A stretch of DNA of 64,000 bases from Chiloscyllium plagiosum (GCF_004010195.1 NC_057756.1:5436093-5500092), one strand, 5' to 3'; positions 3,405 through 60,214 are shown, counted from the stretch's first letter. Notes: generated by a model not told the origin, from the sequence alone. Translations and numbers: made by a program.

Positions 3405-4090
3405 AGAACATAGGAACAGGCCGTTCAACCCACCATGTCTGTGCCAACCATGAAGCCATTCTAAACCAATCCCAGCTATCTGCCTACACCTTGGTTCCCT
3501 CTATTCTCTGCCTGTTCATGTGATTGTCTAAATGCCTCTTAAACATTGCTATCAAACCTGCTTCAACTACTTCTCCTGGCAGCATGCTCCACCCACTATG
3601 TTTAAAAAAAAAACTCACTTTGCACATCTCCTTGAAACTTTCCCCTCTCACCTTAAACCTATGCCCCCTAGTATATGACATTTCCACCTTGGAAGAAAAC
3701 CTCCAACTACCCACCCCATTCATGCCTCTCAAATTTATAAACTTGTATCAGGTCATCCCTCAGCCTCCAACGCTCTAGTGAAAGCAATCCAACTTTGTCC
3801 AAACTCCTTTCAGCAACACATTCCAATCCAAGCAACATCCTGGTAAATAAAACCAACCACCTGCAGATACTGAGGATTCAAAAACCGAAACAGAAATTAC
3901 TGGAGTTCTGATGAAGAGTCACCAAACTCGAAACGTTACCTCTGCTTTCTTCCCTCGGATGCTGCCAAGACCTGCTGAGTTTCTCCAGCAATTTCTGTTT
4001 TTGTTTTAAACACCTTGGTAAACCTCTTTTGTACGCTCTCCAAAGCATCCAGATCTTCCCAACAGTGTGGGGACCAGAACCTGCACACAT
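3405..4090 (-). mobile_element. CR1 LINE 3' fragment, interrupted by a short Penelope-like element
   Basis: TRGHRFKVRGE-type C-terminal ORF2 remnants; CR1 3' UTR. Confidence 0.8.
3848..4008 (+). mobile_element. Short Penelope-derived element with hammerhead core
   Basis: CTGATGA-A-GAGT(caccaa)ACTC-GAAAC-GTT at 3908-3937; imperfect 14-bp TSD aacatcctggtaaa / aacaccttggtaaa. Confidence 0.75.
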
Positions 4091-5334
4091 TTGAGGGAGG
4101 GAGAGAGCACAAGTGCAGTAAATGCTCTCCAAACTGATTCCCGGGTTATGAGGAGGAATTGGGTTGACTCGGGCCTACATTCACTGGAGGGGTTCTCATT
4201 GAAACATGTGAAACTCCTGACAGGGCTTGAGAGATTGCAGGAAGGATGCAGCCAGGATGCTCCTCTTAGATGGAACAAGGAATCATGGTCCCAAGATTTG
4301 CAGCAGCTCAGATTGTACTGAGCGGAGTAGTTTCTTCGCTCAGAAGCTGGTGAACCCGTCGAATTCTCTCTGCCAGGATGCTGTGGAGGTGAATTCACTG
4401 AAATACATTTAAGAAAGAAATAGATACATTTCTAGAGGCTGAATGTGTCAAGGGGAATGGGGAGAGAGTGTGGCTTTTCAACTGAGAAATGGCCATGATC
4501 ATTTTGAATCATGTTGGATGCTCGATGGGCTGATTAGCTCTCCTGCAAGTTTCTACAACTAGACTTGGAGGACGAGAGGTAATGATCAGGGCATAAAGTT
4601 TAAACGTTGCCATTTTGCTGAGAAATCTGGCAGGACAGGAGTCTCTACCCCCTTCCTGTCCCATTCTTTCATTCTGTTGCTTTTTCATTGTGTTGCTCTC
4701 GGTCTCCCTTGCGCACGGTCTCTCGCTTTCTCGCGTAATATTGTGTCAAGGCTAGGAAGGAAAGTTAGATGTCCAAGGGCAGTGAGCTGTTGGAGGATGT
4801 GAAGATTTTGGAGTGACAACTGAGGAATTGGAAGAGTGAGGTAACATTGACCATAGGCTGGGGAGGAGGGGAGTAGTTGAAGAAGGTTTTTGGGAAGGGG
4901 AAGAGAAGAGGCAGTTAGGGTAGGGAGCTGTCATTGATTTCATCGATAAAGCTCCTCATGTCTTCTCCAATAGGAAGTTGGAATGAATGTTTCTGGGAAA
5001 GGGGAAGTGGGGGAATATTTTCCATGTCCAGGTGATATTACAGACCAAGCCAGTATCGGCAGTGGAAAGGGAGGTTGAGTAGAGTGAGACTCAACCAACA
5101 TCCCTTTGGCCAGAAATTTAAAAATGGGCAATCCGGGTGATTGCCACATTACCTATGTGTGGAATCTTGCTGTCCAGTAGTTTCCTACCTAGCAGGAAAG
5201 GTCCAGGACAGGCTTCACTGAGAGTGAGAAGCTGAGTGTGAAATGGCGCTGGTGGTTTGATTACCTCAGACCTCCCACCTCTCCATTGGTCTGTTTCTCT
5301 GTGAAGTTTGACAGAGGGCAGGTCCATATGCCCT

Positions 5335-5550
5335 GTGTGTGGGAGTGTGTGTGCGTGCGTGTCTGCACGTGTGTGTGGGAGTGCATGCGTGCGTGTCTGC
5401 ACGTGTGTGGGAGTGTGTGTGCGTGCGTGTCTGCACATGTGTGTGGGAGTGTGCATGCGTGTCTGCACGTGCGTGTGGGAGTGTGTGCACGTGCGTGTGG
5501 GAGTGTGTGCGCGTGCGTGTAGGAGTGTCTGCATGTGTGTGCGTGTGCGC
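5335..5550. repeat. GT-rich minisatellite (about 36-bp unit)
   Basis: gtgtgtgggagtgtgtgcgtgcgtgtctgcac repeated. Confidence 0.9.
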
Positions 5551-6139
5551 GTTCCTGATTGGCCGCGTCGCTGCAGAAAGAACTGGGACCCTGGTGTCGT
5601 CTGGCGATTGTACACAGAGTCGAGGAACGTGTTTAAAATCCTATAGCATCTCTCACTTTCCACAGGCAATAGGTCAGTGATCAATGCACTGGGAGCTGAC
5701 CCATGGACAACACAGCTATCAAGGTTATGCATAGCAATGAGATAATGACTAGTTCATTTATGTAAGGACATTGGATTGAGGGGGAGTTGTTGACCCCAGA
5801 AGCCATGAGGGATCACCCCTACTTCAGGCAGCTGCACAATACTGGCGCTTAATGTTGCCCTCAGAAGGAAGGCCTCCTAGTGTTGTAGGGTTTACCGAAC
5901 TGCCAGACTGCTCAGTTACTGGAACCTGACAGCACAGCCCTCACCAACTGGGATAATAACCCACTGATCGATATTCCCGCTGCTTCTTACACATCCTGGA
6001 ATTTTGTTTGGGGATTATTTGCTTTAGCTGCTCACGTTACTACAACATTGCAACACTCTGCTGACTCACCTTGTTGCTAGTTTCTGTCTCTCTGTCCCCT
6101 CTGCCGTGCTCTCCCCCTCTGCTGCTCTCTCCGCCTGCC

Positions 6140-7129: not shown

Positions 7130-7436
7130 GTAAGGAGAAGCAACACAGCCATTCAGCTCATAGACCATCCTATCCCATTCAACATGATCAATGCTGACCA
7201 CCAGTGTCAGGTTCACTCTCTCACCCTGCCCCCCAAAAAGCCATCCATGTTGAGGCTAAATCACCTCAGGCATTTGGCATCCACATCACCTCAGGCAAGG
7301 GCGGAGAAACAGATTCCTCCCCCACGTGCGTGAAGACATTTCTCCTTCACTCGGATTGAAACAACTTTCCTCAGAAGCTGAGGCTGAGGCCCCATCCTGG
7401 GGGAGGTGTGTGTGTATGTGTGTGTAGAGAAGGATC

Positions 7437-7716
7437 TCTCCAAATCAACCCTATCAAACTCCTCAATCTTGCCTGATTTACAGAGATCAGACTCTGTTCT
7501 TCGAGAAAGAACGTTACAGCACAGTCCAAGTCCTTTGGCCCTTGATGTTGCGCTGACCTGTGGAACCAATCTGAATCTCTCCAAATCAACCCTATCAAAC
7601 TCCTCAATCTTGCCTGATTTACAGAGATCAGACTCTGTTCTTCGAGAAAGAACGTTACAGCACAGTCCAGGTCCTTTGGCCCTTGATGTTGCGCTGATCT
7701 GTGGAACCAATCTGAA
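7437..7716. repeat. 141-bp tandem duplication
   Basis: Two near-identical copies; caaatcaaccctatc starts at 7441 and 7582. Confidence 0.92.
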
Positions 7717-10705: not shown

Positions 10706-11097
10706 GTAAGTGACTCTCACTGGGGCATGGGCTCACTCACACATACACACACTCACTGGGGTACAGCTAGCTCATGCTGATATGCTCACTCATTGTCACA
10801 CACTGACCCACCTTCTCCTCCTGCCCTCTCCCCCACTGCCCTCTCCCATACCCCACCCCCCCACATACACACTCTGATTCTCACTGGGGTATTGCCTCTT
10901 GTGCTCTCCCATGCTTGCTCTCTCTCTCACACACAGACTCTTACTGGGTTGCGGACACACAGACACTCTCACTCTCTTGCACCCTCTCTCGCTCTCTGTC
11001 ACACTTGCACGCTCGCACACTGGCATGGGTGGACCATTGGTTGACCATGTGAAGGAACACTTTGTCTGTTCCAGAGTTTTGATTATATATCCTGCCT

Positions 11098-11310
11098 GAA
11101 AATGTGTTGCTGGAAAAGCGCAGCAGGTCAGACAGCATCCAGGGAGCAGGAGAATCGACATTTCGGGCATGAGCCCTTCTTCAGGAAGGCTTATGCCCGA
11201 AACGTCGATTCTCCTGCTCCCTGGATGCTGCCTGACCTGCTGCGCTTTTCCAGCAACACATTTTCAGCTCTGATCTCCAGCATCTGCAGCCCTCACTTTC
11301 TCCTCGAAGA
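11098..11310. mobile_element. Fold-back Penelope-derived short element
   Basis: About 80-bp inverted arms; 14-bp TSD tatatatcctgcct (11084-11097, 11311-11324). Confidence 0.88.
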
Positions 11311-11764
11311 TATATATCCTGCCTCACCAGTTCCAGTTGTTAGGTTCTTAATGTGGCTGTTGGTGGTCTTTGTGTGTTTGTAGCCATTCAATCAACCAAC
11401 AAACTGCGTTAATGTGAGGGAATGAGCTCCCGATCCCAGTATGAACAATGTCTGGAGTTTTTCTTGTGGTTGAAGATGGAGAGTGGTTTGTCAGTTCGCA
11501 TTGCTGTTTTTGAACCTGTGACTTCTTTGATGCGGCTGGTGGCTGTGTGTCTGTTGTCCTAGAGACTGGGCATCAGTGAGGATCTGAGAAAGTACGGGGG
11601 GGAAAATGGTGTTTGGGAAGTGCTCCTCAAGATGATTCCACACAAATTCTTACAAAGAACACCCAAACATTGCAGTGTCCTGCACTTCCCTGTCTGGGAT
11701 GGGAGGCAGGAATCTCCAAGCTGAAACACATTTCCTGCTCAGAATGCTCACTCAACTAACGATT

Positions 11765-15522: not shown

Positions 15523-15995
15523 TGTACAACAGATTGAGAGACAGACACTGGGTTGTAACCACTGTCTGAGTCTTGATGATACAGCCTGTGATTATCATCG
15601 GAATCATGGTGTGTGCGCGTGTGTGTGTCAGATCATGTCCGCTGTTAGTCACTGAGTGGTGAAAAGCAGGTTTCAACTTGTCTCACAGAAATGTCAGTTT
15701 GTGTGGATCCTGCTCCCTTCTCTGTGCTGGAGCTTGGTACTGGGCCTGGGGCCCGGTGCAAGTCGGGCGGGGGTGGGTGGGGTCTGGTGTGGTCCTACAG
15801 GAAGTGTCTGGGTCTCTCTCTCTCTCTCTCTCTCTGGTTGCTGTGTGATGTAAATGGGCACTGGGGAATAGTACAAAGTGGGTCGTTGGAATTTGAAAGC
15901 TGCCCAGTGTTCCGTGCAGCCTAGGAGATTCGGTCGAGCGCAGTCGCCAGGCTAGGATTCAGCCTGGATGGGTGCATGGGCATGTCACAGGCTCA

Positions 15996-16095
15996 TTCTG
16001 GATCAGTGGTGCTGGAAGAGCACAGCAATTCAGGCAGCATCCGAGGACAGGCAAAATCGACGTTTCGGGCAAAAGCCCTTCATAGGTTTTTACCT
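15996..16095 (-). mobile_element. Short Penelope-derived element
   Basis: Same family as 11098; 14-bp TSD atgtcacaggctca (15982-15995, 16096-16109). Confidence 0.85.
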
Positions 16096-16402
16096 ATGTC
16101 ACAGGCTCAGACTACCCTGGGGTGTGGTGGGTGGGTTTGAGGGGTGGAGTTGGGATTGAGGTGGGCTCACAGTCTGGGACCCTGGAAAAAATTACCAGAA
16201 AGTAGTGTAGAGCCTGGCAGAGGGTTAAAGAGAGGATGGGAACCTTCGAAGAAGTGTGTGGGGCTGTATTGAACTGGGGCCTGACGCCTGAAGCCTGGGG
16301 TGTGAAGTCAGGGCCTGTGGCAGAGTTTGGAATTCAGAAGCCTGTGGCCTAACCATGTCACGCTTCCTGATCTCTCTCTCATTCTTTCACCATGTTTTCC
16401 AG

Positions 16403-21719: not shown

Positions 21720-21915
21720 GATGTGGAGGTGCCGCTGTCGATGAGCAAAGTTGGAAGTCGCATGATGCCAGGTTACAGTCCAAGAGGTTTATTTGAAATC
21801 ACAGGCTTTTAGAGCACTGCTCCTTTGTCAGGGGCAACTCGAAGGAACAGTGCTCCGAAAGCTTGTGATTTCAAATAAACCTCTTGGACGTGTGTCGTGT
21901 GACTTCTGACTTTGT
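21720..21915. mobile_element. Fold-back Penelope-derived element, different family
   Basis: gtccaagaggtttatttgaaatcaca...tgtgatttcaaataaacctcttggac inverted arms; ggaacagtgctcc-GAAAGCTT hammerhead-like half. Confidence 0.75.
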
Positions 21916-23479
21916 ATGATTCAAGGTAATGGGATGTATACAGGTTCCCATAAACGTAAAAAAGTAACTACTTGTTGTGATCAAACCGTTTTTAATTAAT
22001 AGCAAGAAAGAAACATGAATTGCTCAGCTATAACTAGGTTGGAGAATTCTGATCATTAGTCTCTGAGTAACCGGTTGATCATTTGCCCTTTTTGCTGCTT
22101 CTGCCAGTGGTTTCTCCCCTTTTCCTTTCAACAAGAGGACTGAAGAGAGAGCCACTCAAAGAGGAAAGGTGAGAGAGAGTAACTAACTACTAGGGATTTT
22201 CATTTACATTTATATTTCCCCACAAAGGAGATGCTTTCTCTTCACTGACCAATGTTTCTATAGTATTATCCACTCTCAAGCCTGTAGCCTCATGCCCAGG
22301 AACTATGCTGAGCATCCCTAAACAAAAGATATCCTCAACGCCATCACCTCCTGCCATCCACCCAACATAACTGCCTGAATGAGACATTTTATGTACAATA
22401 CACAATGAATTGCATTTTTCAAACTACATTCTCTTTTCCACAATTTTTAGTCCACAGTTCAATCAAAGAAAGTGTGATTGGTTGCTGGGAGAACTGACCC
22501 ATTTAATAGGACAGAGTGTGCCCATAATTGTAGCCCCTGCTTCACAAGCTGTTATTAAAAACAAAGCTGAGATGACCAATTCATCTTGCTGATTGCTGTT
22601 CAAGGTAAGAGCAATTCACACCAGGTTTTGTCGCTAACAGAAAATCATTAATTATTGTAATGCTCTACAACACATCATAAAATTATTTAAAATGTATTAT
22701 TATTAAGAGATGTTAATGCCCTAATGGGGCAAAATTAGAACATTGATGTTCTAATCCTAATTGACATTAATGGACAAGTCTGATCCAGACTGAAATCTGC
22801 CTTGATAGACTATTTTTCTCTTTAGCTTTAACAAGGCAATCTTTCACTGAAACACATGGCAAACAATGCTGATGATTTACTTTGAACAAAATCAGTAAAC
22901 TTATTACACAAAAGAAATTAGAATAAATAGAACTACTTATATACAAGTTTAAAGATGTTGAAACTAATTTTAAAAAATGTTTAATCCCACCAAGTTCTCC
23001 TTACAGAAATCAAACACCATAATGTTGCCAATCACAGGGACTAGGTTAAATTGTCATAGGTACATAGTATTTTACAGCATGCAAACAGTCCACTTGGTCC
23101 ATTATGAATCATGCCCCTTATCTAGCATTAATTTACTTTAATCCCAATTTCCATGATTTGGACCATAGCCTTGCACACTGTGGCACTTGCACACCACATG
23201 AGGAACAAAATTCTCAAGACCAAACAGCCAGATCTGCCAGCATAGCTTAATTTACCTCAGTTGTTTTTTCTGTGATGTAATGGTCGCTCTTCACTCTAGT
23301 GGTTGATCGGTTGGACCTAGGTCTTTTGAACATAGATGGGTGTTCTAATCTATGACATTACTGATCCAGCTTCACTTTCCATATGATAACCTACCAGTGA
23401 CCTTACCCTAATGACCTCAGAGTCCTGCCCCATGGCCTCTGATGCTCAGAGCCCCACCTCCTCAGGGAATAGCTCCTAT

Positions 23480-24357
23480 ACACAGCCCCTCTCACTGGTG
23501 ACCTCACAGAGCCCCACGCTGATGACCTCACAGAGCCCCACCCTGATGACCTCACAGACCCTCTCAATGATGACCTCTTAGCCCCTCAGTGATGACCTCA
23601 CAGCCCCTCACTGATGACCTCAGTCTCCCTCTCACTGATGACCTCACAGCCCTTTCACTGATGACCTCACAGCCCTCTCACTGAGGACCTCAGTCTCCCT
23701 GTCACTGATGACCTCACAGCCCCTCTCAGTGATGACCTCAACGCCCCTCACTGATGACCTCGTCTCCCTCACTGATGACCTCACAGCCCTCTCACTGATG
23801 ACCTCAGTCTCCCTGTCACTGATGACCTCACAGCCCCTCTCAGTGATGACCTCACAGTCCCTCACTGATGACCTCGTCTCCCTCTCACTGATGACCTCAC
23901 AGCCCTCTCACTGATGACCTCAGTCTCCCTGTCACTGATGACCTCACAGCCCCTCAGTGATGACACCTCAGCCCCTCTCAGTGATGACCTCACAGCCCCT
24001 CTCACTGATGACCTCACAGCCCCTCTCTGTGATGACCTCAGTCTCCCTCTCTGTGATGACCTCAGTCTCCCTCTCTGTGATGACCCTGTGATGACCTCAG
24101 TCTCCCTCTCTGTGATGACCTCACAGCCCCTCTCTGTGATGACCTCACAGCCCCTCTCTGTGATGACCTCACAGCCCCTCTGTGATGACCGCACAGCCCT
24201 CTCTGTGATGACCTCACAGCCCCTCTCTGTGATGACCTCACAGCCCCTCTCTGTGATGACCTCACAGCCCCTCTGTGATGACCTCACAGCCCCTCAGTGA
24301 TGACCTCACAGCCCTCTCTGTGATGACCTCACAGCCCCTCTCAGTGATGACCTCACA
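23480..24357. repeat. About 22-bp minisatellite upstream of FAM187 copy 1
   Basis: tgatgacctcacagcccctctcWS, roughly 40 copies. Confidence 0.95.
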
Positions 24358-24556
24358 AAGGTCCAGCCCCTCCCCCTTGGATCCACCAACTCGTAGTCCC
24401 GCCCCCGGTGACCTCCACCTGGTGACGCCCAGAGCCACACCCCCTGGTGACCTCACAGTGACCCCCGGCCCCCACGGGGCCTGGTGCCCCCTCGGCCGGC
24501 CGGCCGCCCCCGGGTTTTCCTGGCGGCGGGGAGGGGGGAGGGAGGCGGGGGCCTGG

Positions 24557-26074
24557 ATGTTCGGGCAGACGGCGGTCCTGCTGTCGGTGGCTCTGTTCGC
24601 CCTGATCGGCAGCTTACCCCGGCTCCTGGAGAAGGAGGTCTCCGAGTCCGAGTGTCCGGAGCCCGGCTTAGGCCCGGGGCCCTGCACCGTCCCTTTCCTG
24701 TCCCAGAACCCGCTCACCCTGCACTGCCCGGGGGCCCTGCAGCACGGGGACGACACGGTGTACTGGCAGTACCTGAACCTGAGCGCGGGCCCGGGCCCGG
24801 GGCTGGGGCTGGGGCTGGGCCAGGGGCCGGGCCCGGGGCCTGGGCGACACAGGAGGAGGCCTGGGGCTGGGGCTGGGCCTGGGCCTGGGCCTGGGGCTGG
24901 GCCTGGGCCGGGGCCGCGGGGAGCCGCAGGGCACACGGAGCTGGGGGAGCCCCGCACCTTCATTGGTCCCCGGGGGGCTCGGGCTCGGCGGGGCCCTCTG
25001 TCAGAGCTGAGCAGCCGGGCTGTCCTGAGGGCTGGGGCCCTGCTGGTCGCTCAGGCCCGGCCTGGGGACTCGGGCCTTTATGTGTGCAAGGCCGGAGCCA
25101 CGAGGCTGGCCCAGTACCGGGTGGACGTGCAGGACGCCGAGCGGCTCCATGTGTCTCACCGGGGCTTGGGCCAGGCCCCTCTCCGTAACCAGAGCGTCAG
25201 GCTGCAGCTGGAGGCCGGCCGAGGCCGCGGGGCTGGAGGCTGCCGCCTCAGGCTGTACACCCGCTGGGGACCCTGGCAGGAGTGTGACCGCTGTGGGGCC
25301 CCGGGGGAGAGGAAGAGGCTGGGTTTCTGCTGGGCCTCCCTGCAGGAGGATGAGGATGAGGAGGACGACAGGGACGAGGGGGAGGGTAGGGCTGAGGAGG
25401 AGCCCTGTGGCCTCATGCAGCTCCGCCTGGGCCAGGTCCTGCCGCGCCGAGGCCCCGAGATCCGCTACGAGATCTGTCGGAGGGAGTGTGGCTCCTCCGG
25501 GGCTGAGGAGCTGGCTGCCCAGGCCCGGGAGCTGCTGGGCTCGGGGTACTTCCTGAAGCGGGACCAGGGCCTAGGTCTGGGTCAGGCCGGCAGAGGGGAT
25601 CTCCGGGTCCCGCCAACGTGGCTGCAGCCTCGCTCCCTGCTGCTGGAGACGCTGCTGCTGGATGTATACGAGGAGGTGAGGCTGCAGTGCCCAGGTGCCT
25701 CAGTCTACACGCCGGTATCCTGGCAGCGGGACTCAGTACTGCTCACCCGCCTCGAGTTGCTCCGCTCATCGTGCAACAGGAGCCATCAGCTGGACCGGGA
25801 GACGGGCGGTGGTGTCTACACTATCGCCGGAGTGCGGCGCTCCGACCAAGGGGTGTACCGGTGCTGGGTGAGAGGCCGCCGGGCTGCTGCCTTCCACCTC
25901 GAGCTGCCTGAGCCACCGTCGTCCTTCCACGATGGCACCGGCAGCCGGCAACACCGGCTGCAGTCACGCCGCCTTCTTGGGGTCCTGCGGGCTGTCATTG
26001 GCTCCTTTGCACTGGTATTTGTGCTCAGCGCTCTGGCTGAGCTGCTGCATTCGTGCTGGTGCGAGGTGCTGTGA
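24557..26074 (+). CDS. FAM187-family Ig-like domain protein, copy 1 (505 aa, single coding exon)
   Basis: Hydrophobic leader MFGQTAVLLSVALFALIG; Ig1 (DSGLYVC); YRVDVQD..LHVSHRGLGQAPLRN; YTRWGPWQECDRCGAPGERKRLGFC; second Ig (LQCPGASVYTPVSW...DQGVYRCWV); C-terminal TM. These are FAM187A/B motifs. The ORF-track extension to 24275 is minisatellite-derived. CpG-rich. Confidence 0.9.
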   Translation: MFGQTAVLLSVALFALIGSLPRLLEKEVSESECPEPGLGPGPCTVPFLSQNPLTLHCPGALQHGDDTVYWQYLNLSAGPGPGLGLGLGQGPGPGPGRHRRRPGAGAGPGPGPGAGPGPGPRGAAGHTELGEPRTFIGPRGARARRGPLSELSSRAVLRAGALLVAQARPGDSGLYVCKAGATRLAQYRVDVQDAERLHVSHRGLGQAPLRNQSVRLQLEAGRGRGAGGCRLRLYTRWGPWQECDRCGAPGERKRLGFCWASLQEDEDEEDDRDEGEGRAEEEPCGLMQLRLGQVLPRRGPEIRYEICRRECGSSGAEELAAQARELLGSGYFLKRDQGLGLGQAGRGDLRVPPTWLQPRSLLLETLLLDVYEEVRLQCPGASVYTPVSWQRDSVLLTRLELLRSSCNRSHQLDRETGGGVYTIAGVRRSDQGVYRCWVRGRRAAAFHLELPEPPSSFHDGTGSRQHRLQSRRLLGVLRAVIGSFALVFVLSALAELLHSCWCEVL

Positions 26075-37712: not shown

Positions 37713-37797
37713 ACATACTCCTTGATGCCTTTAATATCTAAACATTTCTCTTCCTCTTTCCTGAATATATTCAATTTCAGTATGGGCAATTCCATAT

Positions 37798-38080
37798 GGG
37801 TGGCATGGTGGCTTAGTGGTCAATACTGCAGCCTCATAGCACTAGGGACCCAGGTTCGATTCCAGCCTTGGTAACGGTCTGTGTGGAGTTTGCACATTCT
37901 TCCTGTGTCTGTGTGGGTTTCCACCCACGATCCCAAGATGTGTAGGTAAGGTGGATTGGCCATGCTAAATTGCCCATTGTGTTCGGTGCATTAGTCAGAA
38001 GGAAATGGATCTGGATGGGTTACTCTTCAGAGGGAGAGTATGGACTTGTTGGGCTGCATGCCCTGTTTCCATACTGTAGA
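37798..38080 (+). mobile_element. Diverged HE1-type SINE
   Basis: Head, V-domain and tail recognisable, with deletions. Confidence 0.8.
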
Positions 38081-39042: not shown

Positions 39043-39137
39043 GATGAGAGTGTGGTGCTGGAAAAGCACAGCAGGTCAGGCAACATCCGAGGAGCAGGAG
39101 AATCGACGTTTCAGGCATAAGCCCTTCATCAGGAATC
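39043..39137 (-). mobile_element. Short Penelope-derived element with hammerhead core
   Basis: Minus strand reads ttc-CTGATGA-agggcttatgcct-GAAAC-GTC-gattc. Confidence 0.8.
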
Positions 39138-41459: not shown

Positions 41460-44400
41460 AGCTGTGGCTCGTGAGGTTAGTAGACCATTGGGATGCCCTT
41501 CTGGGGAAGGTGGGACCTGTAGGGGGAGGATGGGTTGCATTTAAACTGGAGGGCCACAAATGTCCTGGCTGGGAGGTTTGTTCATGTGGCTCGGGAGGGT
41601 TTAAACTAGTTTGGCAAAGGGGTGGGGACAAAACTACATATCTGGGGGCGGGGGGGTACTTGTAGATGGGGCAGTGACTGGATGTAGTGAATCTATTAGA
41701 AAGGTTTTTCATGTGATGAAACAAAAGGGGTCAGTTAAAGTGTGTCTGCTTTAATGCAAGGAGTGTCAGAAATAAGAATGATGAACTTAGACCATGGATT
41801 AGTACTTGGGATTGTGATGTTGTGGCCATAACAAGACTTGGATTTCACAGGGACAGGAATGGTTGCTAGATGTTCCAGGGATTAGAACATTTAAAAAGAA
41901 CAGGGAAGGTGGTAAAAGAGGAGGGGGCGTAGCATTGCTAATCAGAGAGTGCATCACAGCTACAGAAACGAAGGTCGTTGATGAAGGTTTGTCTACTGAG
42001 GCAGCGTGGGTGGAAGTTAGGAACAGCAACAGAGCAGTCATCTCATTGGGGGTTTTCTACAGACGCCCTAGTAGCAGCAGGGAGATTGAAGAACTCATAG
42101 GCTGGCAGAATTTGGAAAAATGCAGATGTAGTAGGGTTGTTTTTATGGGCGACTTCAACTTTCCCAATATTGACTGGAACCTCCTTAGTGCAGATGGTTT
42201 GGATGGAACAGTTTTTGTCAGGTGTTCAGGAGGGTTTCCTTACTCAGTATGTAGACAGCCATTTTGGATTTGGTGCTCAGCAATGAGCCAGGACAGGTGT
42301 CAGATCTCACTGTGGGAGAGCACTTTGGTGACAGTGACCATGACTGCCTCACGTTTACCATAGCCTTGAAGAAGGAAAGGAGCAGTTACCAAAGGAAGAT
42401 ATTTATTTGGGGAAAAGGAAATTATGATGCTATCAGGCAGGAGTTGGGAAGTACAGACTGGGAGCAATTGTTCCACAGAAAGGGCACAGCAGACATGTGG
42501 AGACTGTTTAAGGAGCATTGTTGTGAGTGGTGTACGAATTTGTTCCTCTGAGACAGGTAAGAAGGGGTAAGATTAAGGAACCTTGGATGACAAGAACAGA
42601 GGAGCTTCTCGTCTAAAAAGGAAGGCGGCAGCTTACATGAGGTGGAGGAAGCAAGGATCTAGCCCAGCTTTAGAGGATTACAGGCTTGCTAGAAAGGAGC
42701 TCAGAAATGAACTGAGGAGAGCCAGGAGGGGGCATGAAAAAGGTTTGGCAGGAAGGATTAGGGAGAACCAAAAGGCATTTTACTCAGACATGAGGAATAA
42801 GAGAATGATCAGGGAGAAGGTAGGGCTGGTCAGGGATAGTGGAGGGAACTGGTGCATGGAGTCAGCAGATAGGGGAAGGCCTAAATGAGATCTTTGCTTT
42901 GGTTTTCACAAAGGAAAGGGACCTTATCATGAATGAGAACTTTGAGGAGCTGGGATACAGTCTTGACGAGATTAAGATTGCTGGTGTTTATGTGCTGGAA
43001 ATTTTGGGAAACATTAAGATTGATAAGTCCCCAGGGCCAGACCAGATTTATCCTAGGTTGGTCCAGGAAGCGAGAAAGGAGGTTGCTAAGCCGTGGTGAG
43101 GATATTTGCCTCCTCACTCTCCACAGGAGTCGTACTGGAGGATTGGAGGGAGGAGAAAGTTGTTCCTCTTTTCAAGAAGGGTAATAGGGAAATCCCTAAC
43201 AGTCAGCCTTATGTGTGTGGTCAGCAAAGTTTTGGAAAGAATTCTGAGGAATAGGAGTTATGACTATTTGGAAAAGCATAGCGTGATTAAAGGCAGTCAG
43301 CATGGCTTTGTGAGGAGCAGGTTATGCCTCACAAATCTTATTGAGTTCTTTGAGGAGGTGATGAGACAGGTCAACGAAGGTCAAGCAGTGGATGTGGTGT
43401 TCATGGACTTCAGCAAGGTATTTGATAGGGTTCCCCACGGTAGGCTCATTCATAAAGTCAGGAAGTATGGGATAGAGGGGGATTTGGCTATCTGGATTCA
43501 GAATTGGTTGGCTGACAGAAGGCAGAGAGTGATTGTAGATGGAAAGTATTCTGCCTGGAGGACAGTGTTGAGTGGGGTCCCGCAGGGCTCTGTTGTTGGG
43601 CCTCTGCTCTTTGTAGTTTTTGTAAATGACTCGGATGAAGAGGTTGTGGGGTGGGTTAGTAAATTTACAGACGACACGAAGGTTGGAGGTGCTTTTGATA
43701 GTATAGAGGGCTATTGCAGGCTGCAGTGTGACATAGACAGGATGCAGAGCTGGGCTGAGAAATGGCAGATGGAGTTCAACCTGGATAAATGCGAAGTGAT
43801 GCATTTCGGAAGGTCAAACTCGAACGCTGAATATAGGATTAAAGACAGGATTCTTGGCAGTGTGGAGGAACAGAGGGATCTGGGTGTGCAAGTACATAGA
43901 TCCCTCAAAGTTGCCACTCAAGTGGATAGGGTTGTTAAGAAATCATAAGGTGTTTTGGCTTTCATTAGCAGGGGGATCGAGTTTAAGAGCCAAGAGGTTT
44001 TGCTGCAGCTCTACAAGTCCCTGGTGAGACCACACTTGGAATATTGTGTCCAGTTCTTGTCGCTCTATTATAGGAAAGATACAGAGGCTTTGGAGAGGGT
44101 GCAAAGAAGGTTTACCAGGATGCTGCCTGAGTTGAAGGGCTTGTCTTGCAAAGAGAGGTTGACGAAACTCTGACTTTTCTCTCTGGAGAGAGGAAGAGAG
44201 GAGACTTGATCGAGGTGTACAACGTAATGAGAGACATGGATAGTCAATAGCCAGAGACTTTTCCCCAGGGCAGGATTGACTGGCATGAGGGGTCATAGTT
44301 TAAAGGTTTTAGGAGGAAGGGATAGAGAAGATGTCAGAGGAAGGTTCTTTATGCAGAGAGTTGTGAATTCAATGCCAGCTGTGGTGGTGGAAGCAGAATC

Positions 44401-46235: not shown

Positions 46236-49200
46236 AGAACATAGACAAGTACAGCACAGAACAGGCCCTTTGGCTCACGCTGTTGTGCCGAGGTTTAATC
46301 CTAATTTAAAATATAATAACCTAACCTACGCACCCCTCAACTCCCTACTATCCATGTGCCTGTCCAGCAGTCACATAAATGTCCCCAATGATTCTGCTTC
46401 CACCACCACAGCTGGCAATGCACATCCCATGCATTCACAACTCCCTGCGTAAATAGCCTACCTCTGAAGTCTCCTTTATACCACCCTCCTAATATCTTCA
46501 AACTATGACCCCTCATACCAGTCAATCCTGGGGAAAGGTCTCTGGCTATTGACTCTGTCTATGGCACTCATTATTTTGTACACCTCCATCAAGTCTCCTC
46601 TCTTCCTCCTTCTCTCCAGAGAGAAAAGTCTGAGCTTATTCAAGCTGTCTTCATAAGGCAAGCCCTCTAGTCCAGGCAGCATCCTGGTAAACCTTCTTTG
46701 CGCCCTCTCCAAAGCCCCTGTATCTTTCCTATAATAGAGCGACCAGAACTGGACACAATATTCCAAGTGTGGCCTCACCAGGGACTTGAGGCACTGCAGC
46801 AAAACCTTGTGGCTCTTAAACTCGATCACCCTGTTAATGAAAGCCAAAACACCATATAATTTCTTAACAACCCTATCCACTTGAGTGGCAACTTTGAGGG
46901 ATCTATGTACTTGCACACCCAGATCCCTCTGTTCCTCCACACTGCCAAGAATCCTGTCTTTAATCCTATATTCAGCATTCGAGTTTGACCTTCCAAAATG
47001 CATCACTTCGCATTTATCCAGGTTGAACTCCATCTGCCATTTCTCAGCCCAGCTCTGCATCCTGTCTATGTCACACTGCAGCCTGCAATAGCCCTCTATA
47101 CTTTCAACAGCACCTCCAACCTTCGTGTCGTCTGTAAATTTACTAACCCGCCCCTCAACCTCTTCATCCGAGTCATTTATAAAAACTACAAAGAGCAGAG
47201 GCCCAAGAACAGAGTCCTGCGGGACCGCACTCAACACTGTCCTCCAGACAGAATACTTTCCATCTACAATCATTCTCTGCCTTCTGTCAGCCAACCAATT
47301 CTGAATCCAGATAGCCAAATCTTCCTCTATCCCATACTTCCTGACTTTATGAATGAGCCTACCATGGGGAACCCTATCAAATGCCTTGCTGAAGTTCATA
47401 TGTACCACATCCACTGCTTGACCTTCGTTGACCTGTCTCATCACCTCCTCAAAGAACTCAATAAGATTTGTGAGGCATGACCTGCCCCTCACAAAGCCAT
47501 GCTGACTGCCTTTAATCAAGTTATGTTTTGCCAAATAGTCATAAATCCTAACCCTTAATTCTTTCCAAAACTTTGCTGACCACAGACGTAAGACTGACTG
47601 GTCTGTAATTGTTAGGGATTTCCCTATTACCCCTCTTGAAAAAGAGGAACAACATTCTCCTCCCTCCAATCCTCCGGTACGACTCCCGTGGAGAGTGAGG
47701 AAGCAAAGATCTTTGCTTCCTTTCTCGCTTTCCCAATCAACCTAGGATAAATCTGGCCTGGTCCTGGGGACTCATCAATCTTAATGTTTTCCAAAATTTC
47801 CAGCACATCAACTTTATCAATTTCGATCCGGTCAAGACTGTATCCCAGCTCCTCGAAGTTTTCTTCATTAACAACAAGGTCCGTTTCCTTAATGAAAACC
47901 AAAGCAAAAAATTCCTTTAGGCCTTCCCCTATCTGCTCAGACTGCAAGTTCCCTCCGCTATCCCTGACCGGCCCTACCTTCTCCCTGATCATTCTCTTAT
48001 TCCTCACATGAGTAAAATGCCTTTTGGTTCTCCCTAATCCTTCCTGCCAAGCCTTTTTCATGCCCCCTCCTGGCTCTCCTCAGTTCATTTCTGAGTTCCT
48101 TTCTAGCAAGCCTGTAATCCTCTAAAGCTGGGCTAGATCCTTGCTTCCTCCACCTCATGTAAGCTGCCTTCTTCCTTTTGACGAGAAGCTCCTCTGTTCT
48201 TGTCATCCAAGGCTCCTTAATCTTACCCCTTCTTACCAGTCTCAGAGGAACAAATTTGTGCATCACTCACAACAACTGCTCCTTAAATAGTCTCCACATG
48301 TCTGCTGTGCCCTGTGGAACAATTGCTCCCAGTCTGTACTTCCCAACTCCTGTCTGATAGCNNNNNNNNNNNNNNNNNNNNNNNNNNNNNNNNNNNNNNN
48401 NNNNNNNNNNNNNNNNNNNNNNNNNNNNNNNNNNNNNNNNNNNNNNNNNNNNNNNNNNNNNNNNNNNNNNNNNNNNNNNNNNNNNNNNNNNNNNNNNNNN
48501 NNNNNNNNNNNNNNNNNNNNNNNNNNNNNNNNNNNNNNNNNNNNNNNNNNNNNNNNNNNNNNNNNNNNNNNNNNNNNNNNNNNNNNNNNNNNNNNNNNNN
48601 NNNNNNNNNNNNNNNNNNNNCAACCTCCTCATCCAAGTCATTTATAAAAACTACAAAGAGCAGAGGCCCAAGAACAGAATCCTGCGGGACCCCACTCAAC
48701 ACTGAACTCCAGGCAGAATACTTTCCATCTGAAATCACTCTCTGCCTTCTGTCAGCCAACCAATTCTGAATCCAGATAGCCAAATCTCCCTCTATCCCAT
48801 ACTTCCTGACTTTATGAATGAGCCTACCATGGGGAACCCTATCAAATGCCTTGTTGAAGTTCATACACACCACATCCACTGCTCGACCTTCGTTGACCTG
48901 TCCCATCACCTCTTCAAAGAACTCAATAAGATTAGTGAGGCATGACCTGCCCCTCACAAAGCTATGCTGACTGCCTTTAATCAAGTTATGTTTTGCCAAA
49001 TAGTCATAAATCCTAACCCTTAATTCTTTCCAAAACTTTGCTGACCACAGACATAAGACTGACTGGTCTGTAATTGCCAGGGATTTCACTATGACCCCTC
49101 TTGAAAAGAGGAACAACATTCTCCTCCCTCCAATCCTCCGGTACGACTCCCGTGGAGAGTGAAGAAGCAAAGATCTTGGCTTCCCTTCTCGCTTTCCGGA

Positions 49201-50022
49201 CCAACCTAGGATAAATCTGGCCTGGTCCTGGGGACTTATCAATCTTAATGTTTTCCAAAATTTCCAACACATCAACTTCATCAATTTTGATCCGGTCAAG
49301 ACTGTATCCCAGCTCCTCGAAGTCTTCTTCATTAACAACAAGGTCCGTTTCCTTAGTGAAAACCAAAGCAAAAAATTCCTTTAGGCCTTCCCCTATCTGC
49401 TCAGACTGCAAGTTCCCTCCGCTACCCCTGACCGGCCCTACCTTCTCCCTGATCATTCTCTTATTCCTCACGTATGAGTAAAATGCTTTTTGGTTCTCCC
49501 TAATCCTTCCTGCCAAGCCTTTTTTGTGCCCCCTCCTGGCTCTCCTCAGTTCATTTCTGAGTTCCTTTCTAGCAAGCCTGTAATCCTCTAAAGCTGGGCT
49601 AGATCCTTGCTTCCTCCACCTCATGTAAGCTGCCTTCTTCCTTTTGACGAGAAGCTCCTCTGTTCTTGTCATCCAAGGCTCCTTAATCTTACCCCTTCTT
49701 ACCAGTCTCAGAGGAACAAATTTGTGCATCACTCACAACAACTGCTCCTTAAATAGTCTCCACATGTCTGCTGTGCCCTGTGGAACAATTGCTCCCAGTC
49801 TGTACTTCCCAACTCCTGTCTGATAGCGTCATAATTTGCTTTTCCCCAAATAAATGTCTTCCTTTGGTAACTGCTCCTTTCACTCTCCAAGGTCAAGGCT
49901 AAACGTGAGGTAGTTGTGATCACTTTCACCAAAGTGCTCTCCCACCGCGCGATCTGACACCTGTCCTGGCTCGTTGCCGAGCACCAAATCCAAAATGGTC
50001 TCTCCCCTTTTTGGTCTGTCTA
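46236..50022 (-). mobile_element. CR1 LINE with internal ~1.46-kb duplication across an N-gap, inserted in an older CR1
   Basis: RT ORFs at 46503-47669 and 48283-49371; 47160-48360 is repeated at 48621-49830. Confidence 0.92.
48362..48620. other. Assembly gap inside the duplicated CR1
   Basis: N run. Confidence 1.
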
Positions 50023-51410
50023 CCCTCTCTAAAGCTTCCACATCCTTCCTATAATATGGTGACCAGAACTGAACACAATATTCCAAATGTGGTCTCACCA
50101 GAGAGCTAAAGAGCTGCAGCAAAACCTCATGGCTCTTAAACTCAATCCCCTTGCTAATGAAAGCCAACACACCATATGCCTTCTTAACAACCCTAACAAC
50201 TTGGGTGGCAACTTTGAGGGATCTACAAACGTGGACCCCAAGATCCCTCTGTTCTTCTACACTGCTAAGAATTCTGCCTTTAATCCTGTATTCTGCCTTC
50301 AAATTCGACCTTCCAAAGTGAATGACTTTACACTTTTCCAGGCTGAACTCCATCTGCCAATTATCAATCCAGCTCTGCATCATGAGCCTCATTTCTGATA
50401 AAGGGAATTATGCCCATAACAAACTCTCCTGCTCCTTGGATGCTGCCTTACCAGCTGTGACTTTTCAGCACCAAACTTTTCTACTTAGTTCTGTATCCTG
50501 TCAATGTCCAGTTGCAACATACCACAGCCGTCCACACTATCCACAACTCCACCACCTTCACGTCACTGACAAACTTACTAACACACCCTTCCACTTCCTC
50601 ATCCAAGTCATTTATAAAAATCACAAAGAGCAGAGGTCCCAGAACTGATCCCTGCGGATCACCACTGGTCACCAAGCTCCAGGCTAAATATTTTCTATTT
50701 ATCACACCCTCTATCTTCTATAGGTTAGCCAATTCTATTATCCAGACAGACAGGTTCCCTGTATCCCATGCCTCCTTACTTTCTGAATGAGCTGACAATG
50801 GGGAACTTTATCAAATGCCCTGCTAATATCCATGTACACCACATCCACTGGTCTACCTTCTTCAATGTGTTCAAAGAATTCAATAGGGTTTGAGAGTCAT
50901 TACCTGCCCCTCACAAAGCTGTGCTGACTATCTCTAATCAAACTATGATTTTCCAAGTAATCGTAAGTCCTGTCTCTCAGAATCCTCTCCAATAATTTGC
51001 CCACCACTGACGTTAAGACTGACAGGTCTGTAATTCCTAGAATTATCCTATCCCTTTCTTGAACAAGGGAACAACATTTGCCACCCTCCAATCATCTGGT
51101 ACTACTCCAGTAGGCAATGAGGACGCAAAGATCTTTGCCAAAGATGCAGCAATCTCTTCTCTCATTTCCTGTAGAAATCTTGAGTATACCCCATCTGGCC
51201 TAGGGGATTGACCTCTGCTTATGTTTTTTAAAGTTTTCAGCACATCCTCCTTCCTAACATCAACCTGTTTTAGCAGATTGTTTTGTTTCACACTGTCCTC
51301 AGAAATATCAAGGTCTCTGTCAGTCGTGAATACTAAAGCAAAGTATTCATTAAGGACCTCCCCTACTTCCTCTGACTTCAGGCACAAGTCCCCTTCACTA
51401 TCCCTGATCC
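50023..51410 (-). mobile_element. Older CR1 (host); its 3' part continues at about 45780-46235
   Basis: Host reads ...ggtaaatgtcctct | accctctctaaagcttccac..., contiguous once the insert is removed. Confidence 0.85.
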
Positions 51411-51905: not shown

Positions 51906-52461
51906 CTGCAATTGGAGCAACACAGATTGTGAGAGAGAGAGAGTGCCTGCAGCCAAGAGGCAGTGAATCCTGAAGCAATTCGGTCCTTCATTCCACAGCA
52001 AGGCAACTTCAGGAACAGTATACTGACCCTGGAGAAAGAATTCTTCAAAGACTGACCAAAATGACTCAGGAACTCAAAAAAAGAGTGAAGATACTAAGAC
52101 AGATTATACAGACTCCGCGCAGATTCTCATGTGGAATGTTACAAGACCAAGGTAATGCAAAGCGTTTCAAATGTCAATTATTACAGCAGATACAAACTTG
52201 CTGAACTCCTCGTCTCCCTCATTCGCTGGGTTTAAGGAGATTAAGCTGTCCTCCAGTCCGTCAAGGGGACATCATTCAATAAATGTGTGACATTGTCGGG
52301 CAGTCTCGGCCAGAGTGTGGAAGAACTTTATACTTCAGTCACAGTACTGGAAATTCACTGCACAGGGACCCTCACCCGTTCTCATAGCCAGGACTGTTCC
52401 CTGCTTACAGAGGCTGTCCTTCAACAAAGCATTTCTGAGTGAGTCAACAAGATTAATCCCA

Positions 52462-52618
52462 TAACAACCGAAAGAACTGAGGATGCTGTAAATCAGAAAC
52501 AAAAAATTAAAAATCAGAAATTACTGGAAAAGCTCAGAACTGGAAGGGTCACTCGAGCTGAAACATTAACTCTGATTTCTCTCCAAAAGGTGCTGCCAGA
52601 TATGCTGAGCTTTATCTG
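52462..52618 (+). mobile_element. Short Penelope-derived element (family of 3848), degenerate
   Basis: 12-bp TSD agattaatccca (52450-52461, 52619-52630). Confidence 0.75.
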
Positions 52619-53129
52619 AGATTAATCCCACGACTGGAGAACTCAAGAGGGAGGGCGAGGTAACTTGCAAATTGGAAGCAAGTTGTTCCACTGGGGAACA
52701 ACTTCCTCAGCAGCCAAGGGATCTCCCTCCAAAGAGGTGCAAGTTGCAAGGAGATAGTTGGAGTTTCCCTGGACCGAGAAAGGAAGATGTTCCCCGATGC
52801 TGGGAAATGGAGGGATACAGAACTAAATTCCTACACTGTTCCAATGCACTTTGGTCAAACAGTTTCTCTAATGGCATCTTCCTGTGCCCAAAATTCAAGA
52901 TTCTCACTGGCTATTAGCTCAGGGAACAGCTTCCCATCTTCAAAAGATGCTTCACATCAGACCTTTTAAAGAATTCATCCCTGGAGTCTTCATTGCTGAC
53001 TGCTTGATCAATATTTAACCATGCAGTGTACAGTGAACAATCAATCCCATTGCTGTGGGTCTGGAGTCATATGTAGACCAGACCAGGTAGGAGCAGCAGA
53101 TTTCCTGCCCTGAAGGACATTACTGAACC

Positions 53130-54439: not shown

Positions 54440-56820
54440 TCATAGAGACAGAGCTGTACAGCATGGAAATAAACCTTTCAGTCCAACTCATCCATGCTGA
54501 CCAGATATTTGAAATTAATCTAGTCCCATTTGCCAGCTTTTGGCCCATATCCCCAGAATTATCTCCGTAATGGCACTGTGGGTCAACCCACAGTAGGTGG
54601 ACTGCAGCGGTTCAGAAAGACAGCTCACCAACACCTTCTGAAGTGCAACTAGGGACAGGGTAATAAATGCTGGCCCAGCCAGTCATGTCTACATCCCATG
54701 AATGAATAAACTTCCCTCTAAACCCTTTCTATTTATGTACCCACCCAGATGCCTTTTAAATGTTGTAATTGTATCAGCTTCCACCACTTCCTCTGGCAGC
54801 TCATTCCATACACACACACCACCCTCTGCGTGAAAAAATTGCCTTTTAGGTCTGTTTCATATCTTTTCCCTCTCACCCTAAACCTATGCCCTCTAGTGCT
54901 TGTCTCCCCCACCACAGGGAAAGATCTTGTCTATTTACCCTATCCATGCCCCTCATGATTTTATAAACCGCTATAAGGTTATCCCTCAGCCTCCGACGTT
55001 CCAGAGAAAACAGCCCCAACCTATTCAGACTGTACAAGAAGGGTAGTAGGGATATTCTGGGTAACTACAGACCAGTGAGCCTGACATTAGTGGTGGGAAT
55101 GTTGCTGGAGAAGGTACTGAGGGATAGGATCTTTTTATATTTAGAAAAGAATGGGCTTATCAGTAATAGGCAACATGGATCTGTGCAGGGGAGATCGTGC
55201 CTTACCAACTTAATAAAGTTCTTTGAGGAAGTAACCAGGTTGATAGATAAAGGAAGGGCTGTTGATGTCATATACATGGACTTTAGTAAGGCGTTTGATA
55301 AGGTTCCCCATGGTAAACTAATAGAGAAAGTGAGGTCACATGGTATGCAGGGTGTTCTAGCTAGGTGGACAAAGAACTGGTTGACCAACAGGAGACAGAG
55401 AGGAGTAGTTGAAGGGAGTTTCTCGAAATGGAGAAAAGTGACCAATGGATCAGTATTGGGCCCACTGTTGTTTGTGATATACATAAATGATCTGGAAGAG
55501 GGCACTGTTGGTATGATCAGCAAGTTTGCAGATGATACGAAGATTGGTGGAGTAGCAGAAAGCATAAGGGACTGTCAAAGAATACAGGAGGGTATAGATA
55601 GACTGGAGAGTTGGGCTGAAAAGTGACAGAGTTCAATCCAGACATGTAAGGTGATGCATTTAGACAAGTCTAATTCTAGAGCGAATTGTACATTGAACGG
55701 AAGAGCCTTGGGAAAAGTTGATGGGCAGAGAGACCTGGGAGTGCAGGTCCATTGTACCCTGAAGGTTGCTGCACAGGGGGATAGAGTGGTCAAGAAGGCA
55801 TATGGTATGCTTGCATTCATTGCCAGAGTATAAGAGCTGGCAAGTCATGTTAAAATTGTACAAGACATTGGCTCAGCCACATTTGGAATACTGTGTACAG
55901 TTCTGGTCACCACATTACCAAAAGGATGGGGACACTTTGGAGAGGGTGCAGAGAAGGTTTACAAGGATGTTACCTGGTATGGAAAGTGTTAGCTATGAAG
56001 AGACGTTGAGTAGGTTAAGTTTGTTTTCATTAAAAAAAAAGGAGATTGAGGGGGAGCTGATTAAGGCTTACAAAATCATTAAGGGTATAGACAGGATGGA
56101 TAAGCTTTTTCCCAGGGTGAAGGATTTAATAACAAGAAGTCACGCTTTCAAGGCGAGAGGTGAAAAGTTTAAGGGGGATACACGTGGCAAGTACTTTACA
56201 CAGAAGGTGGTGGGCGTCTGGAACGCGTAGCCAGCAGAGGTGGTAGAGGCAGGTACGGTAGATTCATTTAAGATGCGTCTGGACAGATTCATGAGTAGGT
56301 GGGGAGCAGAGGGATACAGATGCTTAGGAATTGGGAAACAGGTTTAGATAGTAGATTTGGATAGGCTCAGACTTGGAGGGCTGAAGGGCCTGTTCTTGGG
56401 CTGTAAATTTTCTTTGTTCTTCTTTGTCCATATAGTTCAAACTCTCCAACCCTGGCAACATCCTTGTCAATCTTTTCCGAACCCCTTAAATATTTCACAA
56501 CATCTTTCCAATATCAAGGAGATCAAAATTGCACACAGTATTCCAGAAGTGGCCTAACCAATGTCCTGGAAAAGCATAGCAGGTCAGGCAGCATCCGAGG
56601 AGCAGGAATATCGACATTTGATGACGGGCTCCTGCCCAAAACATCTATTTTCCCGCTCCTCGGATGCTGCCCGACCTGCTGTGCTTTTCCAGCACCACTC
56701 TAATCTGGACTCTAATCTCCAGCATCTGCAGTCCTCACTTTCACCTAATCAATGTCCTGTACAGCCACAATATGATCTCCCAACTCCTATACTCAGTACA
56801 CTGACCAATAAAGGCAAACG
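54440..56820. mobile_element. Minus-strand CR1 3' fragment with a plus-strand CR1 (about 55031-56425) nested inside
   Basis: Plus-strand RT: QHG..GRSCLTNL, DFSKAFDKVPH, KFADDTK. Flanks are contiguous minus-strand CR1. Confidence 0.9.
56569..56743. mobile_element. Fold-back Penelope-derived element inside a CR1
   Basis: TSD cctaaYcaatgtcctg (56553-56568, 56744-56759). Confidence 0.8.
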
Positions 56821-57047
56821 TGTGTGACTGGTCATTAAACCACAAATTAATCAGCTCAGTGCCAAAAAAAGCTCCATTTGTACACAATTCCAGTTTATCT
56901 GTAATTTACATTTCAATTGCTGATTCAACAAGCAGCTGTGTAAATTATGCTGTACAACGAGGGTCAAATTACTTACTTTCTCAGCATGTAGCAATCCCTG
57001 CAACCTCTAAATTGGAAATAGTCCCTTTACTGTTTCAATCCACAATT

Positions 57048-59677: not shown

Positions 59678-59690
59678 AAGAGTCTGTAGC

Positions 59691-59904
59691 TGAAAATGTG
59701 TTGCTGGAAAAGCGCTGCAGGTCAGGCAGCATTCAGGGAACAGGAGAATCGTCGTTTCGGGCATAAGCCCTTCTTCAGGAACCCAGGCTTATGCCCGAAA
59801 CGTCGATTCTCCTGCTCCCTGGATGCTGCCTGACCTGCTGCGCTTTTCCAACAACACATTTTCAGCTCTGATCTCCAGCATCTGCAGTCCTCACTCTCTC
59901 CTCA
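59691..59904. mobile_element. Fold-back Penelope-derived element
   Basis: Near-identical to the 11098 copy; 13-bp TSD aagagtctgtagc (59678-59690, 59905-59917). Confidence 0.88.
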
Positions 59905-60214
59905 AAGAGTCTGTAGCCTCAGGCCAGGGCTGTATGCTTGGGTATCAACTAGATTCCCAGCTTGAGACTTATTTCAATGCAGCTGAATATCAACATTGGC
60001 CATTCTCTGCTGACTGGGATCGAAAAGATTGTTTCTCAGAACATTTCCAGTGAGGCTGAAGAGACTAATTATCGAAGGTGCATTTCAGAAAATAAGGAAT
60101 CTGTAATTCCTGAGAAGGGTGAAGGTTTAGAAACTGAATATTGAAACAAAAGGGGATAAAGATTTGCACTAGTGAGATTATGATATATTCAGCCAGGATG
60201 CAGGAGCGACTCAC

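Follow-up and report, generated by a model that had tools for sequence, protein, structure and literature searches.

In a 64,000-nt window of vertebrate DNA from the bamboo shark Chiloscyllium plagiosum (the whole stretch analyzed, which includes three N gaps and from which every count below is taken), I describe 11 short insert pieces at 10 loci that are probably dead-end mini-insertions of endonuclease-bearing Penelope-like elements (PLEs), representing three families of pseudo-long terminal repeats (pLTRs). Their origin from PLEs is close to certain and is supported by their anatomy, namely an inverted arm, a tail at one end, the features of a minimal hammerhead ribozyme, and target-site duplications (TSDs); I am also highly confident that they are not retrozymes. 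Twin priming is a reasonably likely source of their two arms, and run-off, rather than a stop site, is put forward only tentatively as what sets their 5' limit.

Seven of the 10 loci hold two arms of the same sequence, inverted and joined head-to-head, an arrangement that the initial annotation of this DNA had overlooked. One arm ends ~88 nt past C3 of the hammerhead, and its partner carries ~40 nt more, the tail, which is present on one arm only in 7/7 two-armed inserts, is pyrimidine-rich, and measures ~39-40 nt in the inserts at 11098 and 59691 (loci are named by their position in the window). The tail-bearing arm varies in length, from ~10 nt (15996) through ~58 and 75 nt (3848, 52462) to 115-127 nt (11098, 21720, 56569, 59691), and it is the tail-less arm that reaches further 5' in five of the seven two-armed inserts and the tail-bearing arm in the other two. 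At 11098 and 59691 the arms end at identical points (-3, +9), the two inserts differing by a 4-nt filler only, and the tail arms agree at 115/118 positions; each of the remaining five two-armed inserts is joined at a different place, and no variant is common to both inverted arms as against both direct arms.

With C3 set as 0 and cleavage predicted between +27 and +28 in family A, 12 of the 17 arms with a definable boundary have their 5' ends at -10 to +9, the remaining five starting at +21, +34, +67, +75 and ~+115 (the boundary at 62548 is undefined; the tail remnant at 15996 and the junction-limited arm ends were read by eye). Eight inserts have their limits set by a TSD or by a junction within the insert, and in all eight the longer arm reaches no further than a point between -10 and +5. 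Under a memoryless-truncation model fitted to the other drop-offs this pile-up comes out at ~1e-12, a figure to be read in the light of positions placed by eye, of arms at the same locus that are not independent, and of a single window. Whole-window scans found no arm that extends upstream with shared sequence. None of the 18 arms starts at the cleavage site (+28; the nearest are +21 and +34) and 13 of them cross it, and since the arms run through this site, uncleaved RNA must have served as the template. Truncation was thus non-random, the longer arm ending within ~10 nt of the 5' edge of the hammerhead in 8/8 bounded inserts, which suggests that the cDNA ran off the mRNA at its 5' end or met a strong stop. 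The inserts had earlier been offered, as one of two options, as very stereotyped 5' truncations, which comes closer, though what is seen are two-armed, inverted, tailed insertions with a 5' limit much tighter than random truncation would leave.

The pieces, and the two hammerhead cores in which every core base is kept, are as follows.

3848..4008 (-): family B two-armed insert; tail-less arm on + (~3903-4008), head-to-head with a short tail-bearing arm on - that starts +75 from the hammerhead C3; TSD 3834-3847 / 4009-4022; within a long interspersed nuclear element (LINE) fragment.
3908..3937 (+): minimal hammerhead core, every core base kept; stem III loopless and palindromic; stem I weak.
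11098..11310 (+): family A hairpin; inverted tail-less arm (5' end -3), direct arm (5' end +5 to +9), ~40-nt tail; 14-bp perfect TSD 11084-11097 / 11311-11324; LSR intron; 85-nt arms, 94% complementary.
15996..16095 (+): family A; inverted tail-less arm (5' end -1 to +3) and ~10 nt of the tail end only, this tail remnant read by eye against 62643; 14-bp perfect TSD 15982-15995 / 16096-16109; LSR intron.
21725..21930 (-), locus 21720: family C hairpin; tail-bearing arm on - (at most to -10), tail-less arm on + (from +5/+6); core decayed; TSD uncertain.
39045..39136 (-), locus 39043: family A solo tail-less arm; 5' end -4; uromodulin-like intron, sense to the gene; no TSD found.
39105..39132 (-): minimal hammerhead core, every core base kept, but with a G10.1-U11.1 wobble.
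50385..50486 (+), locus 50395: family A solo tail-less arm; 5' end -4 to -10; decayed; 14-bp TSD 50371-50384 / 50487-50500, within a LINE fragment.
52462..52618 (-): family B, two-armed; the arm on + lacks a tail (5' end 0 to +5), the arm on - carries one (from +67); 12-bp perfect TSD 52450-52461 / 52619-52630.
56569..56743 (+): family A hairpin; tail-less arm from +21, tail-bearing arm from +1; within a LINE fragment; 16-bp TSD with 1 mismatch, 56553-56568 / 56744-56759; gap-free empty site.
59691..59904 (+): family A hairpin of the 11098 subfamily; tail-less arm to -3, then 4 nt of filler and the direct arm (from +9) with a ~39-nt tail; 13-bp perfect TSD 59678-59690 / 59905-59917.
62535..62606 (-), locus 62548: family C solo arm with a stem II deletion; no upstream boundary definable; no TSD found.
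62643..62731 (+): family A tail-bearing arm; starts at +34; no TSD found.

Self-BLAST of the window bore out the eight inserts and two remnants named at the outset, and their sorting into about three families: A (11098, 15996, 39043, 50395, 56569, 59691, 62643), B (3848, 52462; a distant relative of A) and C (21720, 62548). Together the pieces total 1,576 bp, or 2.5% of non-N bases, at about one per 5.7 kb (the first estimate was about one per 7 kb). No additional members were found in the whole window by profile searches or by a scan with a covariance model, which was made from nine cores, so that its training rows match by construction; in an alignment made for such a model one row (family C) was out of register. 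Seven of the 11 pieces lie within mapped introns, in agreement with the claim that they are mostly intronic, but enrichment in introns was rejected because these make up at least 53% of the window. Two family A arms 46 kb apart, 15995-16052 and 62643-62700, are identical at 58/58 bases, which on sequence grounds would mark a young subfamily.

Evidence that the pieces were inserted comes from their flanks. Five of the 11 tested boundaries gave 12-16-bp TSD matches with scores of 12-14, whereas among 3,000 random pairs drawn outside tandem repeats two scored 12 and none 13; at 3848 a 14-bp TSD with two mismatches is confirmed by a gap-free empty site. A further TSD, of 14 bp (11/14 identical), had been missed at 50395, where it is seen as the overlap of an interrupted LINE copy. 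When the insert and one duplicate are deleted at 3848 and at 56569, the flanks match other LINE copies without a gap. Target duplications of 12-16 bp are thus found in seven pieces, three of them demonstrated by comparison with interrupted LINE copies, and these TSDs and empty-site comparisons therefore make for seven proven insertions and four pieces without a clear TSD. In the boundary tests 21720 gave a 7-bp match only and 39043, 62548 and 62643 gave no TSD, nor did 39043 or the pair 62548/62643 have a distant TSD partner. The combination expected of a PLE derivative, a TSD (in 7/11 pieces) with no poly(A), is what the inserts display.

As for the putative hammerhead, the claim that several inserts keep its core stands in part: a strict motif scan gave three hits in the window against 0-1 in each of 20 shuffles, but all core bases survive in only 2/18 arms (3908+, 39132-), with U in place of C15.2 at 11184 and A in place of U16.1 at 59778 among the defects. 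An extra base always lies between positions 9 and 10.1 (a motif scan without it missed most cores), stem II has 4-5 bp and stem III is loopless and palindromic. Pairing in stem II reaches 89% across nine arms; two of its four pairs vary on both sides, and G10.1-Y11.1 pairs in 9/9. The minimal hammerheads of PLEs, as given in PMC4209133, are defined by the extra base at 9/10.1, G10.1-C11.1 and a palindromic 15.2-16.2, which supports the original proposal of a minimal PLE-type hammerhead with a palindromic stem III; like the inserts, they are of type I with a loopless palindromic stem III and a short stem I, and they occur as singles and opposite-strand pairs. The same paper describes dispersed single hammerheads and close opposite-strand pairs as "probably related to truncated PLEs", its Schistosoma hammerheads have a stem II of 7-8 bp as opposed to 4-5 bp in the predicted ones of the shark inserts, and it names no shark among its genomes in the text consulted.

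Of the scans with hammerhead models that had been advised, the motif scan gave its hits above shuffles, and the Rfam scan, with 13 matches up to E=5, contained none to a hammerhead family, although loopless minimal variants may escape those models. The microRNA-family matches in this Rfam scan were rejected as generic hairpin hits far below gathering scores; that to mir-3473 originates at 37380-38010, where two SINE-like (short interspersed nuclear element) copies in opposite orientation form a 72-bp and a 49-bp inverted pair. The predicted pairing probability of stem II is 0.0 within both best hairpins as compared with 0.58 and 0.75 for cores outside a long hairpin, and in these modeled folds the ribozyme is sequestered inside full hairpins. 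When two cores were co-folded the catalytic dimer was not the lowest-energy fold, a weak test that says little. Minimal PLE hammerheads are uncleaved as monomers and cleave at a low level as dimers (PMC4209133; dimer cleavage is reviewed in PMC6765202). On the reading favored here the hammerhead of the shark inserts is a passenger, decaying after insertion.

The overall architecture is familiar from PLEs, whose insertions carry an inverted, 5'-truncated copy and a 30-40-bp tail at one end (PMC8557442, PMC3846280, PMC8969392). Endonuclease-bearing PLEs (Penelope/Poseidon, Neptune) share with the inserts a head-to-head inverted arm, a 30-40-bp tail at one end, a TSD, the lack of poly(A) and microhomology at the junction (PMC8557442, PMC3846280); in contrast to such copies the shark inserts measure only 100-215 bp in all and have no ORF (open reading frame) body, and their TSDs are 12-16 bp as against 8-10 bp in Adineta PLEs (PMC3846280). 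How PLEs come by their inverted repeats and tails has yet to be defined, according to PMC8557442.

The course of events that I propose starts from three things that the inserts show: insertion at a staggered break ~12-16 bp wide (the TSDs of seven of the 11 pieces), a tail-less and a tail-bearing arm of the same sequence, either one the longer, joined head-to-head, and copying from RNA left uncleaved, given arms that pass through the cleavage site. The PLE protein would nick both strands, with one cDNA primed at the tail-end start site and the other at a site 30-40 nt upstream, by analogy with Anolis Poseidon, and the cDNA ends would then be joined, often via 1-4 nt of microhomology or a short filler. 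Least certain is the last step, the halt of the cDNAs at the 5' edge of the hammerhead. For this I prefer run-off, in which cDNAs started on the binding-motif copy close to the beginning of the PLE transcript could extend only to the cap; a stop at a folded or protein-bound hammerhead, or a splice junction, would look the same as run-off here. In twin-primed LINE-1 inversions, two primers at opposite nicks reportedly leave the 5' segment inverted and joined through microhomology, all inside a TSD, and the inserts resemble them in that inverted segment and its joining, but in the shark both priming sites are fixed and internal and the arms often overlap almost fully. Short tail arms would fit a single RNA, whereas such near-complete overlap calls for two RNAs, the PLE protein being a predicted dimer, or for strand displacement.

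The fold-back self-priming of PMC3846280, another possible source of the inverted arm, was rejected, for it predicts a longer tail-bearing arm, which is true in 2/7 only; with the tail-less arm longer in 5/7, simple fold-back of one cDNA is therefore insufficient, and twin priming allows either arm to be the longer. The closest experimental parallel is the Poseidon element of Anolis (PAc; PMC11167929), in which nicking and extension take place on both strands, reverse transcription begins at two internal sites that delimit the tail, hammerhead mutants insert normally, and shortening of the RNA 5' end gives a shorter product. As in the shark inserts, uncleaved RNA is copied and there are two 3' ends 30-40 nt apart, ~60 and 100 nt past the cleavage site, the distal start lying 85-92 nt 3' of the cut site in Anolis (+26 to +111-118) as compared with ~99 nt in the shark, where the tail is ~40 nt. 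The minimal active Poseidon RNA extends to +172 (the step size of the truncation series is not visible in the text available), past the start site at +111-118, and the inserted shark copies are therefore probably not templates. What the available text on Poseidon does not model is an inverted two-arm product or a fixed 5' limit.

Several observations weigh against this account. Covariation is thin (a score of 0.222, matched by 70/500 shuffles) and stem I is only 51% paired; the frame of the core AUG, at which the Anolis Poseidon ORF starts, stops at codon 18 in most family A arms; and the shark TSDs, at 43% G+C, and pyrimidine-rich tails differ from the AT-rich targets and AC-rich tails of Poseidon (PMC11167929). 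The start of Penelope in Drosophila virilis lies further upstream (PMC2377424), and in the same species an intron ends at helix I (PMC4209133). The two junction ends shared by 11098 and 59691 fit a common master copy. A Pfam scan found no GIY-YIG match in 357 window ORFs, comprising 107 of the 130 ORFs of >=100 aa (23 were dropped for N gaps or tandem repeats and two were trimmed) and 250 ORFs of 62-99 aa (without those in tandem repeats and the FAM187 ORFs), and its six RVT_1 matches all fall within repeated LINE fragments. A 40-aa translation of an arm had no hit in three candidates, and a 42-aa translation in another frame gave three weak hits in 1.84 billion proteins, none of them a PLE: one is a methyltransferase model with an exonized family A piece and two are unrelated. 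Because no autonomous partner was found, the case for PLE origin rests on anatomy, and it comes from one 64-kb window in whose three N gaps longer copies are possible.

Among the other explanations, an unlikely one holds that the inserts are non-autonomous miniature PLEs, in which the hairpin is transcribed, for example within introns, and re-mobilized as a unit in trans, rather like a retrotransposed miniature inverted-repeat transposable element (MITE). The twin inserts at 11098 and 59691, with their common ends and near-identical tail arms, and the closed AUG frame are what it would lead one to expect, and there are precedents in the rotifer Adineta, where pLTRs are enough to trans-mobilize a host gene (PMC3846280), and in the non-autonomous Chlamys elements (PMC8557442); yet only 2/7 two-armed inserts share junction ends, the other five differing, no variant separates inverted from direct arms, and with a minimal Poseidon RNA that runs to +172 the inserted copies would be without part of the binding region (PMC11167929). 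In its fullest form, self-propagating, non-coding hairpin mini-Penelopes of ~200 bp, mobilized as units by PLE proteins through two-site priming on uncleaved RNA, the idea has a small chance of being right; if it were, such hairpins would be the retrotransposon counterpart of MITEs, at a few percent of the genome, and their hammerhead fold would be a signal for protein binding or stopping and not a nuclease. An improbable reading is that PLEs with their inverted pLTR were merely cut short from the 5' end at random, as usual, and perhaps trimmed further by deletion or by assembly collapse of long palindromes. In its favor, the textbook PLE copy is heavily shortened at the 5' end and lies next to an inverted copy (PMC8557442, PMC8969392), five arms do stop at scattered downstream positions, and inverted repeats of great length are prone to instability and difficult in assembly (PMC8557442). 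This reading leaves unexplained the narrow stop of the longer arm in 8/8 bounded inserts and the lack of any shared upstream continuation, and deletion offers no cause for a stop at the hammerhead edge in three families.

The retrozyme-like reading offered as one option in the initial annotation, that is, mobile RNAs with ends set by hammerhead self-cleavage and with circular intermediates, is very improbable. Non-LTR retrozymes (lacking long terminal repeats) are, like the inserts, short, non-coding, PLE-related and equipped with a type I hammerhead (PMC7229834; bioRxiv 10.64898/2026.07.22.740005), they were found in the sole chondrichthyan sampled in those sources, and the hammerhead motif, long TSDs and absence of an ORF would suit them. 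Retrozymes are, however, arranged as head-to-tail tandems with a complete ribozyme per unit and are cut to unit-length circles (PMC7229834; bioRxiv 10.64898/2026.07.22.740005), whereas the shark inserts are head-to-head and dispersed, with ends unrelated to the cleavage site: 0/33 tandem-repeat rows overlap an insert and there are no head-to-tail units, no arm begins where cleavage would leave it while most run across that point, the cores are intact in only 2/18 arms, and stem II is predicted to be unpaired in the two best hairpins. The inserts do not belong with the retrozymes. MITEs of a DNA transposon, defined by terminal inverted repeats and a TSD, are a still fainter prospect; the inserts are short and non-coding, with inverted repeats and TSDs, but the repeats are asymmetric with a tail outside the repeat on one side, the junctions and the TSD lengths (12-16 bp) vary, solo arms have TSDs of their own, and the arms carry a PLE-type ribozyme motif. 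Dead-end mini-insertion of endonuclease-bearing PLEs is the reading that I retain.

The inserts also touch the gene models of the region. In the NCBI uromodulin-like model (P0014; window 62626-62587, -) the start lies within the family C arm, and the splice donor to an exon near 62361 is a GT of the decayed hammerhead stem III; its next exon resembles the end of a signal peptide; the true first exon of the gene may lie upstream of the arm. In a lysine-methyltransferase protein model (P0012), residues 6-39 match the translated family A arm and tail (window 11188-11310, 56651-56746), reflecting either exonization or an annotation artefact at another locus. Family A and B arms further contain a branch-point-like word followed by a pyrimidine run and CAG (11236-11257, 56676-56692, 3968-3988), words that we take to resemble a 3' splice site and that, judged by sequence, could be cryptic acceptors or the mark of a PLE intron.

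Around the inserts, LSR exons are present (a Pfam LSR match, with additional exons by motif), one LSR intron holding a near-perfect (98%) 141-bp tandem duplication at 7434-7716. Downstream of LSR are two single-exon FAM187-like paralogues at 24260-26071 and 31383-32594 (+), 33% identical to each other; one FAM187-like ORF has 77% identity to whale shark FAM187B-like, and the first gene (24260-26071) contains a Gly-Pro repeat insertion and is embedded in an island of 69% G+C. The 83-aa exon tested from the uromodulin-like gene matches a protein of Chiloscyllium plagiosum at 100% identity and one of C. punctatum at 94%, which makes the host a bamboo shark. Much of the remaining window consists of LINE fragments (RVT_1 and AP-endonuclease domain), presumably CR1/L2. 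At 46606-49773 a LINE fragment forms a tandem duplication (1,465-bp spacing, 94-99% identity) that spans an N gap and is inverted relative to 42364-44196, which is either a recent duplication or an assembly artefact.

As a catalogue entry the inserts are ordinary, as PLE expansion in shark introns is known (bioRxiv 10.1101/443036) and PLEs are expanded in the whale shark, 30% of them intronic (bioRxiv 10.1101/443036; PMC8455134). Searches of the full-text literature, with subscription journals, Repbase and Dfam outside their scope, found these shark families described nowhere and "twin priming" and "pLTR" together in no paper; the families are probably in repeat libraries already. PLE-derived inserts are themselves a known kind, and the tight 5' limit together with the two-arm length pattern is a modest and testable mechanistic clue. 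Pre-mRNAs acquire long double-stranded hairpins from the inserts, which also mislead gene models, and if the pattern extends genome-wide, the shark mini-inserts would be a very large set of natural integration products, which could directly test twin priming, at the pair of start sites mapped in vitro, as the origin of the inverted arm, and also whether in transposition the hammerhead marks the 5' end of the transcript or a stop, as opposed to a cleavage point.

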